Shown: positions 29,843 to 63,098 of the stretch, in pieces
Numbering within the stretch: the first letter of the stretch is position 1
How the letters are laid out: each line of letters starts with the position of its first letter
DNA from: Eledone cirrhosa
Taxonomy: Eukaryota
Length of the DNA: 64,000 nucleotides
NCBI GenBank assembly: GCA_964016885.1
Contig: OZ024758.1
Coordinates: forward strand, 1,550,001-1,614,000
Direction of reading: 5' to 3'
Translations under genes and position numbers: made by a program
The notes under the pieces: generated by a model
Databases searched by the model: none
Seen by the model: the letters and a program-made list of their open reading frames with translations, nothing else
What the model was told of the DNA's origin: nothing

Positions 29843-30037
29843 AACGAAGGAAATGTGGTAAGGAACCAGGTGGACCATAACGCAGTAAAGTACTCAATAC
29901 TTAGGGTAGTAGAGTGGGTAATAGGAACGAGTAGGACCCCGACGGCTGAGCTCAAGCCGTTTCGACGGCTAATTCTGCGTCCAGAATTAGCCGTCGAAAC
30001 GGCTTGAGCTCAGCCGTCGGGGTCCTACTCGTTCCTA
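29843..30037 (-). mobile_element. Fold-back element family 2, full
   Basis: Palindrome with ~55-bp arms plus tail, between (TA)n runs. Confidence 0.88.
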
Positions 30038-30068
30038 TATATATATATATATATATATATATATATAT

Positions 30069-30258
30069 AGGAAGGTTGATTGGTAAGAGAAACAGAGGCC
30101 AGCATCCAAAACGATGGCTTCATAATGTCAACTTATGGACTGGAATTGATCTTTGCTCTTTAAACTCTGGTGTTGGTGATCGAACTTTGTGGAGAAAAAT
30201 ATCTCAAGTTGATGCGCAGTCTGCAACTAGCGGAGTTCAACGTCACAAGAAGAGGAAG
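30069..30258 (+). pseudogene. RTE-clade LINE ORF 3' end
   Basis: GKRNRGQHPKRWLHNVNLWTG...DRTLWR fits the RTE C-terminal G.R.RGRP..RW...DR..WR pattern; GAA-type tail. Confidence 0.75.
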
Positions 30259-30477
30259 TATATATATATATATATATATATATATATATATATATATATA
30301 TATATATATATATATATATACTTATATTATATATATTATATATATATTTTATATATATTATATATATATATAATATATATATATATATATATATATATAT
30401 ATATATATATATATATATATATAATATGTAGGTTCCTGAGTTGTTTCAGTGGGGCGGGGGGGGGGGTCATCTTTTTT

Positions 30478-30600
30478 TAATATAGAAATTACTTCTACAG
30501 GGCTAGAACTGTTTCATTCGTTTAAAATTATCAGGAATCCTGATGATGTCATACGAATGAAACAGTTCTAGCCCAGTAGAAGCCTGTTGCTTCTCTATAT
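30478..30600. mobile_element. Family 1 palindrome with two opposed, decaying hammerheads
   Basis: TTCTACAGGGCTAGAACTGTTTC..TCAGGAATCCTGATGA..GAAACAGTTCTAG. Confidence 0.75.
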
Positions 30601-31383
30601 ATATATTTAATATATATATATATATATATGTGTGTGTGTGTGTGTGTGTGTGTGTGCCGCCAGGTGTCGTGGTAATATTTACCCTTAAACATATCAATGT
30701 CAGTATTTTGTTAAAACATGTGTGACAGTCGTGAATATGTTTTTCGATAACCCTTTATTTACATTGTTTCAATGAACTGAGTGTATTTCATGTAGTTTGC
30801 TAGTGTTTGAGCAGAGGCGACTGTCGTTAGAATGTCGGATAGAATATGTTGCGGTACTTTCGGCTCTCGACTCTCTGAGTTCAAATCCCACCGAGTTCAA
30901 CGTTTTCTTTTCATCCATTTAAGGTTGGTAAAAATTACTGTGTAGCGCTTTAACGTATTTGATCAAGCTGGAATTCCTCTCCGCTGCCTCTGTTACTGAG
31001 AGTACAAGACTCCTTCCCTGGACAGGACGCTAATCCATCGCAGGGTTAAACCCGTATTTGTTCTTATTTTCAGCTGAGTAAACTGGAGTAACATGAATAC
31101 AACACACAACTCAGCCCAGGAATCGAACACACGACATTATGATCGTATGTCCAACACTCTTACCACTAGGCCACGACATTCATTTTGCTTTTAGTTTTGA
31201 AACCTGTTATAATAGTTCATTGTGTTACAATATTAATTCCCTTCAATTAAATCGATACATCAGCAGGATTTGCCATTTATTTCATCCAGTATCGATCCTT
31301 TAGTTTGGCTGAAAATTCAAAAGGATGCTCAGATCGAATAACCCAATTTCTTTACACAATAATGACCAGCGCATTTCCATTTA

Positions 31384-31811
31384 CGAGGGTCAACTAAAAC
31401 GTTCATTGGCTGACTATGAAAAAGTGATGCTTGGGCTGTGAAATCTTGCTTGCATTAATTTCAACTCTTCTTATTAATAACTGCATTGTTTCGTTCCAAG
31501 GACTATGTTGAAAAATAAACCTCATTTGGTCATTCCATGGTATCTTGGTCATAGGCTAACTATAAAAAAGTGATGCTAGAGCTGTGAAATCTTTGATGTT
31601 GAAAATTAAGCTTCATTTGGTCATTCCATGAAAGTATCTTGGTCAGTCTATGAAGGAGTGCTAGCGATGTGAAATCTTGCATGACTTAATTTTAACACTT
31701 CTTATTAATAACTGCATTAATTATTTCTAGGGATTATGTTGAAAAATAAACATCATTTGGTCATTCCATGAGAGTATCTTGGTCAGCCTATGAACTTTTC
31801 AACTACCCTCG
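31384..31811. mobile_element. Mariner-type MITE with internal tandem duplications
   Basis: Ends CGAGGGT..AA..GTTCAT / ATGAACTTTTCAACTACCCTCG; internal block repeated about three times. Confidence 0.85.
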
Positions 31812-31932
31812 TTTTTCTAATGAAAACAATCTATGATTTAATTTTTTTTTTTTTGATAATCAAATATTTCGAGTGACCAAATAATAAAACTAATTTTATC
31901 GTTATCAAGATGTTTAGAATACAACTTGTGAA

Positions 31933-59465: not shown

Positions 59466-59942
59466 TGTGATCGTTATTCTGAGCCGAAGAGAGAGAAACC
59501 AATTTGCACGAGAGTCAAATAAAAGCAAAGATAAAGAATTAGAGCTTGATATATCTTTGCTTGAGAATTTAGCAATTTTTGGAAGAGAAAGTGTTAAATT
59601 CGAAAGAATCTTTTAATTTATTATATTCCCATGGAACTCTTCCAGAGCTGACAGCTTTTAATCCTTTACTTTCATTTCATTCTTCTTGATATTGTTATTG
59701 TCTTTATTTCTTTATTTCTTTACTTGTGTCTTCTTCTTCTTCTTCTTCTTCTTCTTCTTCTTTGTGACATTAATGGATTTTTCATCAGTCGAAGTTAATA
59801 TCAAGATTTTAGTTGTGTTATTTAAAGCAGTGTTGAGAGAATGTTGTAGAAAATTTGACAAACGAAAAGAAGCACTCAGTTTTATTGTGCAGTGAAGTAA
59901 TGTTCCGTTATAGTGTCAACATGAATTATATCAACAGCCAGC

Positions 59943-60405
59943 TATTACAACAACAACAGCGGCAACAACAACAACAACAACAACAGCAGCAACAACAGCA
60001 ACAGAAACAACAACAACAGCAGCAACAACAACAACAACAACAGCAACAACGGCAACAACAACAACAACAACAACAACAATAACAACAGCAACAATAACAA
60101 CAGCAACAGCAACCACAGCAACAACAATAACAACAGCAACAATAACAACAATAACAACAGCAACAATAACAACAATAACAACAGCAACAATAACAACAAT
60201 AACAACAGCAACAATAACAACAACAACAACAACATCATCACCATCATCATCGGCAACATCAATAACAATAACAATAACAACCACCACCACCACATCATCA
60301 TCACCATCATCACCATCATCATCAGCAGCAACAACAACAACAACAACATCATCATCATCACCATCACCACCATCATCAGCAACAACAAAAACAACAATAC
60401 CATCA
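59943..60405. repeat. (CAA/CAG/CAT)n compound microsatellite
   Basis: Source of poly-Q/L/V ORFs. Confidence 0.95.
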
Positions 60406-60414
60406 CCAAATACA

Positions 60415-60905
60415 CGACCCTTTACGGTGTGAGTTCAAATCCCGCCAAGGTTAGCTTTACTTTTCATCCTCAAGGGGGTCGATAAATAAAGTACCAGTAA
60501 CGCAGTGGGGTCGATTTAATCGACTTTTTCCTTCTCTCAAAATTGTTGGCTTTGTGTCTAAATCAGAAACCAATATATATAAACCTATTGTATATGGGTT
60601 CATATGTATGTAAGGTCCCGTAACTCCTGATGGGGTTTTATGGGCGCCATCTTGACATACGGTGATTCAGGGTCATTTTAAAACCTGACGAGGCCCAACT
60701 TATCTCCAGCAGTTTCTTTTGAAGAAGGATAGAAAGAGAGGGGGGATATAGAGGAAGAATTGATCCCCAGTATGAAACTGGTAATTTTTTATCGACCTCG
60801 AAATGATGAAAGGCTACGTTGACCTCGTCGGAATTTGAACTCAGAGAACAGAGAATCGAAATGAATACCACAAAGCATTTTATCCGATGTTCTAACAACT
60901 CTGTA
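60415..60905. mobile_element. Two opposed SINE A copies (+ 60415-60572; - 60750-60905)
   Basis: Core and B-box matches. Confidence 0.75.
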
Positions 60906-61835
60906 CCAGTTCATATACACTTTTAATATCCAACTAGTCTCAGTTTAACATGTTATTAAATGGCTATAACACTTTATTAGAATTGCTTTCAAGCTGGTCA
61001 TTAGACTAGGCTGTCTTGAAATACATTATTTGTATAAACGACTCGTCAGGAAATTTTGCAATGATTTTTTCCAAGATTTCTCAAATAAGTCACACAGTTT
61101 ATGTATGGTTATATGTGAAGTTACAGGAAAGTTATTGTCTGAATTATGTCTTCTTCAAGAGCATTGGCTCCATAAGTAAAGAGAAATGGTTATAACCTAG
61201 AAGAGAAAGTAGTAGTCAAAGAAGGAGATTGCTCGTTGAAAACTTACTACTTATTTTCCAAAGTGGTTGCTACATTCTCATCTAAGAAAGCAATAAGACG
61301 CCTGAAACAATTAGTAAGGCAGCATTAACAAACAAGCAAATAACAGCAAACGAGGGGAAAAAACACAATACAATACATGAACGTGCATTTACACGAACAT
61401 AGAAACATGTTAACTGCAAACAAAAGATTAAATAAAGAGAGAAAAAAAACAAAAGAAAAAGAATGAAAAAAAAACAAATAGATCATATGCAAATGAGAAA
61501 CAAAACAAATCCGAAAGAAAAAATTCAATTAGAAATAACCAAATTCGTTGAATGATTATAGTGTTGCACGATATATAACAACATTAATGGATTCCATTTT
61601 AAGACTAAATGTGTTATAAATAAGACAGCGACCTTCGATGAAAGCCTATTAATGAAACTTTTAAAAAATATCCTCTGAGAAATTGAGGCTGCAGCAAGAG
61701 GCAGTAATTTATATTTAAACACCATGTCAGACTATAAATAGGTTGCAAGCCAAGGAAACGCCGCAACATGTTTAATATACTCGCTAGGCTAGAAATAATA
61801 GGTCAATTTCCCTAAAATCACACAGTGGTCTTGGG

Positions 61836-62645
61836 AGAAGAAACTCTCAGGAGAGCTGGACAGCAGAAGTTCTTCAGAGAAGAAACTCTCGGGAGAGCTG
61901 GACAGCAGAAAGTCTTCAGAGAAGAAACTCTCAGGAGAGCTGGACAGCAGAAAGTCTTTAGAGAAGAAACTCACAGGAGAGCTGGACAGCAGAAGGTCTT
62001 CAGAGAAGAAACTCTCAGGAGAGCTGGACAGCAGAAAGTCTTTAGAGAAGAAACTCACAGGAGAGCTGGACAGCAGAAGTTCTTCAGAGAAGAAACTCTC
62101 AGGAGAACTGGACAGCAGAAAGTCTTTAGAGAAGAAACTCACAGGAGAGCTGGACAGCAGAAGGTCTTTAGAGAAGAAACTCACAGGAGAGCTTGACAGC
62201 AAGCAGAAGGTCTTTAGAGAAGAAACTCACAGGAGAGCTGGACAGCAGAAGGTCTTTAGAGAAGAAACTCACAGGAGAGCTGAACAGCAAAAGGTCTTCA
62301 GAGAAGAAACTCTCAGGAGAGCTGGACAGCAGAAGGTCTTCAGAAAAGAAACTCACAGGAGAGCTGGACAGCAGAAGGTCTTCAGAGAAGAAACTCTCAG
62401 GAGAGCTGAACAGCAAGCAGAAGGTCTTTAGAAAAGAAACTCACAGGAGAGCTGGACAGCAGAAGGTCTTTAGAAAAGAAACTCACAGGAGAGCTGAACA
62501 GCAATGGGTCTTCAGAGAAGAAACTCTCAGGAGAGCTGAACAGCAGAAGGTCTTTAGAAAAGAAACTCACAGGAGAGCTGAACAGCAGAAGGTCTTCAGA
62601 GAAGAAACTCCCAGGAGAGCTGGACAGGGGGTCTTTAGAGAAGAA
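61836..62645. repeat. 42-bp minisatellite x~19
   Basis: AGAGAAGAAACTC(T/A)CAGGAGAGCTGGACAGCAGAAGGTCTT(C/T), with occasional 4-bp insertions. Confidence 0.95.
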
Positions 62646-62939
62646 GCCAGCACCACCACCACACACTCAAGCAAGTGATTCGGCTCTTTCTAACTTGTTA
62701 CAAAATACAAAGTTTTGATAATATCATCTTAGGTTCCTTGCCCTTAAAAAAGATGAGATGGTTTTGACTGTAATGTATGATACAACAACTAACGGTGACC
62801 ATTTCCTTATAGTGCGAGTTTAATCTACAGTAATACTAACACGGAGAGATGAATATGAATATATATATATATATATATATATACTGTATACACACATATA
62901 TATATATATATATATATATATATATATATATATATATAT

Positions 62940-63098
62940 AACGAAGGAAATGTGGTAAGGAACCAGGTGGACCATAACGCACCAAAGTACTCAATACTTG
63001 AGGTAGTAGAGTGGGTAATAGGAACCAGTAAGACCCCGACAGCTGAGCTCAAGCCGTTTCGACGGCTTGAGCTCAGCTGTCGGGGTCTTACTGGTTCA
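62940..63098 (-). mobile_element. Fold-back element family 2
   Basis: Same private variants as 43944-44140 but a different hairpin apex. Confidence 0.88.

Follow-up and report, generated by a model that had tools for sequence, protein, structure and literature searches.

Fold-back insertions of a Penelope-like retrotransposon in Eledone cirrhosa suggest two-ended priming and candidate RNA 5′ ends

Insertions at the locus and their parent element

We analysed a stretch of 64,000 nucleotides from Eledone cirrhosa (GenBank assembly GCA_964016885.1, contig OZ024758.1, positions 1,550,001 to 1,614,000 of the forward strand; hereafter the window, numbered from its first letter), which belongs to a 3.0-Gb, AT- and microsatellite-rich genome, some of whose repeats seem to be of cephalopod type. 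The window carries short fold-back insertions, in which a tail arm and an inverted short arm meet head to head at an apex. Judged from their sequence, these are short insertions, in (TA)n, of a Penelope-like retrotransposon (PLE) with Hydra-clade protein motifs. A first-pass annotation, made from the letters of the window alone, had listed seven copies of the main family; all seven exist, with the apices given in Table 1 (one of them at 36375, not 36370), and the window holds six further pieces of this family. Coordinates given as "unit" are those of the 3,542-bp repeat that makes up a tandem array of the parent element (locus L032).

Copies were collected in a survey of 1.70 Mb, consisting of 172 non-redundant stretches picked around one-ended patterns (18 of 190 loci were removed as duplicates) and window neighbours, in which 264 insertions were detected. 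For end statistics, five edge insertions and one complex insertion were dropped from the 264. The set of 141 copies used for junctions comprises short two-arm insertions, those above 330 bp being excluded, and the comparison of arms used 89 of these, 52 being excluded for lack of arm overlap. High-scoring segment pairs below 22 nt were ignored, so that insertions with very short arms are counted in a class of 54 "solo tails". Genome-wide, a 26-mer of the tail has 23,135 exact matches, against 0 for its reversed control.

The fold-backs are genuine at the family level. Opposite-strand joints and both fixed (AT)n ends were seen, at family level, in raw Illumina reads of two runs; these are RAD-seq data whose reads end at an AATT site near the apex, so that depth is restriction-biased and a jump in depth was left unused. 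Some palindromes are nearly perfect (349 bp at 99.7%) and the reads support the family, with none shown to span a single window copy: on the 55227 palindrome they confirm the short end of its family (F3) without showing the specific apex. That the palindromes are long-read assembly artefacts at (TA)n tracts is nevertheless extremely improbable, given the joints and fixed ends in independent raw runs, the age-related point changes between arms and the biological rule that the ends obey in three families.

The Penelope origin proposed in the first-pass annotation is borne out by an intact parent, inverted truncated copies of such elements being already published. L001 has an inverted arm, a partial tandem and an open reading frame (ORF); the frame is directly continuous with the tail and spans 786 codons from stop to stop and 719 from the first ATG. 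In both intact parents, L001 and the tandem array L032, the ORF combines a reverse transcriptase (RT) with a C-terminal GIY-YIG-type nuclease, and 2,054 of the candidates scored are relatives at E 1e-10 or better. Genome patterns count 23,288 tails joined to TA against 315 running into the ORF, and a 31-mer lying 250 nt upstream has 1,721 matches. The RT is telomerase-like: YRDD is invariant in 78 of 78 aligned proteins, and an AlphaFold model of the ORF (pLDDT 92) finds its best Foldseek matches in TERT (E 1.2e-8), while a Pfam search returned no family and a PDB sequence search nothing relevant. At motif level, the nuclease is recognized by VIY...YIG at residues 591-608, with Y and G kept in 77 of 78 proteins. 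Further Hydra-clade motifs are DKT at 117 without DKG, RWR at 37-39 (K in 56 of 78, R in 19 of 78), CNCPDRSIC at 572 (CxCx5C, in the linker), CNLC at 670 (CxxC) and CKH at 698 (CxH); by eye, the protein has no CCHH finger and a single cysteine within the GIY-YIG core. Pseudo-long terminal repeat (pLTR) arrangements are present as partial tandems (L001, L030, L039) and as the array at L032-L033. The canonical hammerhead CUGANGA...GAAA is absent from both strands of the unit, which has a U3-A8 variant instead. On these motifs, we file the parent as Hydra-type, with the canonical hammerhead of the clade apparently replaced by the variant. Naiad, our first guess from the (TA)n target, was ruled out by the C-terminal nuclease motif and by DKT in place of DKA.

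Three peculiarities of the parent loci and long copies were recorded. At L001:9033, the second pLTR lacks about 425 bp that the first one has. Within the parent array (L033:6171-9742), about 65 head-to-tail repeats of a 55-bp ORF segment (unit 1617-1674) adjoin the inversion point. In L021, L025, L029, L232 and L233, long arms end within ORF positions 130-227, shortly before they would reach the upstream pLTR; a protein may be bound in this region.

Fixed ends and shared variants of the two arms

The survey agrees with the outer ends ..CCTYCGT|TA and ..TTCC|TA that had been read from the window. In 165 of 175 head-to-head insertions, one end lies at unit 3462 (short end) and the other at 3542 (tail end), both in (TA)n; of the remainder, one is tail/tail, one short/short, and eight have one end unassigned. 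Solo short ends number 23. In the element, TAT comes after each end site and gives a match of 3 nt to the target. Within (TA)n, a target-site duplication would look the same as the repeat itself.

The inverted arm had also been described as stopping just before an ACTC hairpin, including at 55227-55575. It does so, and the latter palindrome belongs to the different family F3: in three families with unrelated flanks, the short end is followed at 5-8 nt by a bulged hairpin, ACTC...GAGT, that has an inner stem. In PAc, a related Poseidon element of Anolis, the counterpart of the short end is read as a second start site of reverse transcription and not as a block (PMC11167929). By analogy, the 80-nt unpaired tail would be the interval between two such start sites, and the hairpin probably serves to position the RT, as does the AC-rich stem-loop in PAc, without any need for it to act as a block.

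Both arms of one copy share variants, as the first-pass annotation had noted, but these are not private to the copy. CAGCTG/ACCAGTAAG, which the copies at 43946 and 62941 have in common despite different junctions, marks the commonest subfamily (52 of 178 arms) and is also found in the parents L001 and L032. A six-site haplotype matched between the arms in 76 of the 89 copies covering unit 3414-3462, whereas 5,000 shuffles gave a mean of 17 and a maximum of 31; in the 13 discordant copies the arms are set apart by point changes, and none shows a clear exchange between major subfamilies. Divergence is 3.8% between arms of one copy and 9.8% between copies. Unshared changes per arm are close to those of the single-copy tail (non-CpG 0.017 versus 0.022; CpG 0.030 versus 0.031) and correlate with the tail rate (rho 0.62), which argues that the arms were identical at insertion and have drifted since. 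Thus, the proposal that each palindrome is made at insertion is supported by both the haplotype concordance and the tail-like divergence that followed. Gene conversion between arms is unsupported, the arm change rates being close to the tail rates; shared non-consensus changes at 27 sites leave room for some of it and count against our reading to that extent.

The same data bear on the idea that the 200-bp hairpin is itself mobile, MITE-like or retrozyme-like, and spread from a few masters with arms homogenized by gene conversion. The tens of thousands of copies are alike in length and a few junctions recur, as that idea would have it. Yet the 141 copies hold 116 distinct junctions, one subfamily has many junctions and one junction occurs in several subfamilies (that of the 62941 copy recurs in L155, which belongs to another subfamily), the arm rates speak against homogenization, and the ends are asymmetric by 80 nt without terminal inverted repeats. 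We regard a mobile hairpin as very improbable.

Priming from both target ends

The palindromes had been attributed to either twin priming or snap-back synthesis of cDNA; the geometry of the joints favours two-ended (twin) priming and disfavours snap-back. The short arm extends more than 10 nt beyond the tail arm in 38 of the 141 copies and the tail arm extends further in 6, while 17 have arms without overlap; in long copies, the asymmetry reaches the kilobase scale in either direction. A short arm that is longer than the tail arm cannot have been templated by a cDNA begun at the tail, the tail cannot have been templated by a cDNA begun at the short end, and spacers of 0-1 nt are too short for a priming loop. 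Later deletion could account for some asymmetric copies, though not easily for young ones. The suggested check for apex microhomology gave a mean overlap of 2.0 nt against 1.2 in simulated blunt joins, with overlaps of at least 3 nt at 33% of joints against 16%; fillers occur in 24 of 87 joints, several of them copied from neighbouring sequence.

Snap-back or self-priming, in which a single cDNA (or, following PMC3846280, an antisense RNA) would fold and be copied until the bulged hairpin, with central deletions varying the apex later, does account for identical arms and coupled ends. The joint microhomology above simulation, and joints at internal repeats with 6- and 19-nt overlaps, also look deletion-like. 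It is, however, hard to square with the copies whose short arm is longer or whose arms do not overlap, which include copies 98-100% identical to the parent, with kilobase asymmetry both ways, with the solo short ends and with spacers of 0-1 base, and both tail ends correspond to RT start sites in the related element (PMC11167929). We consider it improbable. Two-ended priming has a biochemical basis in PAc, for which two internal start sites and the cutting and extension of both target strands in vitro are reported, with a protein predicted to be a dimer (PMC11167929), and we hold it to be highly probable as the event at insertion.

In the mechanism that we propose, one RNA would be reverse-transcribed from both ends of the cut (TA)n target, which would prime at two fixed sites separated by 80 nt, each target end annealing by 3 nt to the TAT that follows both sites. 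The haplotype concordance of the arms speaks for a single template. Both cDNAs would run off the 5′ end of the RNA and then be joined head to head at their 3′ ends, by microhomology-type end joining or by template jumping of the RT. On a transcript starting at A3405 (see below), priming near its 5′ end would yield cDNAs of only 60 and 140 nt, which would be why stumps outnumber long copies. The long copies would derive from uncut read-through RNA, and the stumps are likely dead-end insertions. This account as a whole, two-ended priming on one RNA with run-off at its 5′ end and head-to-head joining, strikes us as reasonably likely.

Two zones in which the arms stop

Variation of the apex, claimed from the window copies, holds at base level but is not free: of the 141 copies, 115 end their short arm and 88 their tail arm within unit 3401-3412, with modes at 3405-3406. 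The first-pass annotation had missed both the gathering of apices at two positions and a hammerhead-like motif across the apex. In the whole genome, half of 20,765 strand matches, or about 10,400 copies, extend both arms to 3411 or further.

The main zone may mark a promoter. A3405 lies within TTA(+1)GTCC, 29 nt behind the TATA-like TATTTAAA at 3376; both the initiator consensus and a TATA spacing of 30 nt are general features of promoters. Two further families, F1 and F3, have a canonical hammerhead core and are known from copies, their parents not having been recovered. F1 has a TATAAATA box, conserved in its subfamilies, 30 nt ahead of CCA(+1)GATT, the commonest starting place of F1 arms: of 28 young arms, 13 begin at +29 to +32 and 19 by +39. 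In F3, YCACT is kept in 18 long arms and several apices, by eye, fall at it. A promoter in the Penelope pLTR has been published (PMC2377424, PMC3846280). A3405 is, somewhat better than even, the transcription start, and we infer that the main stop is run-off there.

The second zone, used by a minority of copies, coincides with a predicted ribozyme. An unconstrained fold of unit 3357-3450 gives a type I hammerhead with the core UUGAGAA (U3-A8), a 50-nt stem II and GUC at 3443-3445, the pair probabilities of its stems being 0.86-0.98, 0.61-0.76 and 0.48-0.76. Across subfamilies, any of the four bases occurs at position 7, whereas U4, G5, A6 (with one exception) and A9 are fixed, and in 30 long copies the 3-8 pair is U-A in 19, U-G in 2 and unpaired in 9. 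A U3-A8 hammerhead is reported from Schistosoma PLEs (PMC4209133) and one has been found active in vitro (PMC3088659).

Arms stop at this site together. In 100 copies, the short arm runs to G3446 plus A or T and the tail arm starts there or at most 7 nt before; by eye, 89 of the 100 stop exactly at 3446 and 43 of the 100 have a single A or T as spacer, and a looser pattern at the control position 3440 found 1 copy. A pattern for insertions in which both arms are very short has 534 matches, and in 40 of the first 100 both arms end at G3446 (23 with filler, 17 blunt; by eye). Counts by eye hint that the subfamily with C3-A8 members is under-represented at this stop, with 7 of these 40 against 36 of 100 short ends. 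Where the partner reaches 3411, stops at 3446 are rare: about 9 among the first 100 short arms listed (of 150) and about 11 among the first 100 tail arms (of 722), against the roughly 10,400 copies with both arms at 3411 or further. Independent stalls would thus predict far below one double stop, so that the stop at 3446 appears to be a property of the template common to both arms. Internal template-jump modules begin exactly at 3446 in L213 and twice in L215, and at 3402-3411 in L192, L193, L197, L217 and L220. We think it probable that G3446 is the 5′ end left when the predicted hammerhead cuts in vivo. Because the putative start site sits in stem II, the hammerhead would form only in read-through RNA.

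A separate observation concerns modules of this kind: at L179:5113-5773 (also in L193 and L194), the tail arm is preceded by two identical modules, each spanning unit 3402 to ORF position 116, an arrangement that may reflect rolling-circle copying of a small circular RNA or later duplication.

Several points weigh against reading these zones as RNA ends. Both putative 5′ ends, A3405 and G3446, are read from genomic copies; these were located by sequence patterns, and several counts were made by eye on the first 100 matches listed. For A3405, 3401-3409 overlaps the 3′ strand of a small inner hairpin, where structure-induced stalls would fall at a similar place; the TATA-like box is degenerate in older subfamilies; no TATA was seen at -30 in the F3 long arms examined; and no full-length copy among 30 loci examined begins at 3405. 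A cap-derived G is unclear, the base before A3405 being T in 28, G in 20, C in 16 and A in 5 cases, with microhomology as a confounder. For G3446, C3 stands opposite A8 as a mismatch in 9 of 30 long copies, no pair changed on both sides among the 30 copies, an Rfam search did not detect the predicted U3-A8 hammerhead, and 3446 is the foot of stem III, where a structure-induced stall would again be placed similarly. One copy also departs from the pattern: at L008:5496-6575, the tail arm ends at 3405 and its inverted partner covers only sequence upstream of about 3400, which resembles L1-style twin priming.

These points feed the closest alternative, in which priming is two-ended but the RT stalls in both stop zones, at structured RNA or at a bound protein. 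Predicted stems do lie at both zones (the inner hairpin at 3389-3409 and the foot of stem III at 3445), the ribozyme is without covariation support, and in the anole element no RNA-seq reads start or end at the cut site and cleavage is unneeded in vitro, as far as the available text goes (PMC11167929). Stalls should be largely independent between arms, yet the 3446 stops are strongly coupled. Likewise, once one arm has passed 3390, the partner stops at 3401-3412 in only 2 of 15 two-armed insertions (by eye, at loci not picked for both arms), and the TATA-to-stop spacing is matched in the unrelated F1. The untemplated A or T added after CCCC is, moreover, what run-off by an RT generally leaves. 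We therefore rate stalling as unlikely, and return to RNA 5′ ends as the preferred reading of both zones.

If that reading is true, some 10,000 copies mark a transcription start and at least 100 mark cleavage by a U3-A8 hammerhead. A promoter inside the ribozyme would mean that only read-through RNA is cut, which would remove the 3′ priming sites and limit full-length transposition. The fullest version, in which a dimeric RT-nuclease uses two sites flanking the hairpin, the joints map 5′ ends of germ-line RNA, and the ribozyme cuts in vivo and acts as a switch, is tentative and, in our estimate, has slightly less than an even chance. If the RNA-end reading fails, what is left is an ordinary, very abundant PLE by-product.

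Relation to known elements

The parent resembles Hydra-clade PLEs such as Hydra-1_Obim and Penelope-13_HM in its single ORF with an RT followed by a C-terminal GIY-YIG-type nuclease, in the DKT, RW(R/K), CxCx5C, CxxC and CxH motifs and in the (TA)n target, as well as in a (here predicted) hammerhead near the end and an inverted truncated copy (5′-truncated in Penelope-13_HM) (PMC8557442). It differs in unit length (3.5 kb versus generally <3 kb), in a tail of 80 nt versus 30-40, in its tens of thousands of stumps, and in a U3-A8 hammerhead with a 50-nt stem II in place of the canonical core, distinct from the Hydra-1_oBim motif of File S2 (PMC8557442).

PAc likewise has an AT-rich target, and its tail is bounded by two internal RT start sites, as it would be here by the two proposed priming sites; the start sites of PAc lie at an AC-rich stem-loop. 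In the present family, the tail measures 80 nt and three nucleotides at either site match the target. In its available portions, the PAc paper does not explain the inverted arm by priming from both ends and reports no in vivo sign of ribozyme cleavage (PMC11167929). Adineta and Drosophila Penelope elements likewise have inverted head-to-head truncated copies, one-sided tails and a junction palindrome, together with TATA and initiator motifs in the pLTR (PMC3846280, PMC2377424). The published explanation for them is self-priming on an antisense template, whereas our counts of copies point rather to sense RNA that is primed twice. PLE hammerheads include type I motifs in pLTRs, U3-A8 in the Schistosoma element Cercyon and variants with large helices II/III; in vivo evidence is stated to be absent (PMC4209133), whereas here genomic copies end at the predicted cut.

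In L1 twin priming, the second target strand primes a second cDNA and the joint shows microhomology. The L1 segments are adjacent and non-overlapping, while here the starts lie at fixed nearby sites and the overlap produces a palindrome.

Inverted truncated copies, one-sided tails, junction palindromes and (TA)n targeting are already published (PMC8557442, PMC3846280), and the origin of inverted PLE copies and tails, together with in vivo hammerhead cutting, is stated there or in related papers as open (PMC8557442, PMC4209133, PMC11167929). In literature covered mostly at title and abstract level, with few subscription journals, we found neither a derivation of PLE inverted arms from two-ended priming nor a mapping of PLE apices to RNA ends. 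The main family adds exact, testable coordinates for two priming sites, a start site and a cut site, and copy statistics that favour two-ended over the published self-priming. If transcribed, 200-bp inserts that fold on themselves and number tens of thousands would also supply much double-stranded RNA; in frog, ADAR strongly targets palindromic repeats (PMC5625713).

Copies and other features in the window

The copies in the window are listed in Table 1. In those with apices near 20595 and 23415, the junction type is ambiguous.

Table 1. Insertions of the main family and of families F1 and F3 in the window
Feature	Position	Strand	Apex	Remarks
Young fold-back insertion	43946..44138	-	44082-44083	(TA)n on both sides; 99-100% identity to parent unit
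Tail arm of 43946 copy	43946-44083	-		unit 3542 down to 3405
Inverted short arm of 43946 copy	44083-44138			unit 3407-3462; 1-nt overlap with tail arm
80-nt unpaired tail of 43946 copy	43946..44025	-		unit 3463-3542; holds ACTC...GAGT bulged hairpin
Fold-back insertion	29844..30035	-	29978	1-nt filler; arms to unit 3409 and 3406
Fold-back insertion	44678..44870	+	~44730 (44730-44733)	arms to unit 3410 and 3402
Fold-back insertion	62941..63097	-	63062-63067	joint at 6-nt microhomology, unit 3416/3426
Older fold-back	36238..36405	-	36375	tail arm to unit 3405; short arm ends ~3432
Older short fold-back	20576..20664	+	20595-20597	apex at most 3 nt from predicted hammerhead cut (3446); internal tail deletion
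Older short fold-back	23395..23512	+	23414-23416	apex at most 3 nt from predicted hammerhead cut (3446)
Older fold-back, absent from first-pass annotation	42238..42418	+		arms to unit 3409 and 3420
Head-to-head insertion, arms non-overlapping, no palindrome	3974..4077	+		short arm to 3405, tail arm from 3493
Head-to-head insertion, arms non-overlapping	14531..14627	+		short arm reaches 3406, tail arm begins at 3501; left boundary approximate
Solo short-end arm without tail arm	57097..57157	+		unit 3402-3462
Solo short-end arm	8934..8991	+		unit 3406-3462; inverted remnant only ~10 nt
F3 family copy	55227..55662	+		349-bp palindrome 55227-55575, 99.7% matched, then ~87-nt tail with ACTC...GAGT hairpin; canonical hammerhead core CTGACGA...GAAA at ~55471-55514
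F1 family, longer copy	20219..20383	+		TATAAATA at 20219, initiator CCA(+1)GATT at 20249, then canonical hammerhead core
F1 fold-back insertion	10021..10206	+		short-end/tail architecture as in main family

Further F3 or F1 copies bearing hammerheads lie at 28471-28871, 10876-11141, 16041-16198, 19672-19806, 30475-30582 and 63323-63438; the one at 19672 starts exactly at the putative F1 start base, after a TA run. Inverted repeats of other repeat families occupy 7739-8065 (99 bp, 99%) and 8197-8711 (111 bp, 100%). An open frame of 442 codons with a cysteine/histidine motif at 52397-53725 (+) resembles what we take to be the C-terminal part of a non-LTR retrotransposon ORF2. Minisatellite arrays with long spurious open frames are found at 26688-27639, 50647-51517, 57848-58448 and 61789-62678.

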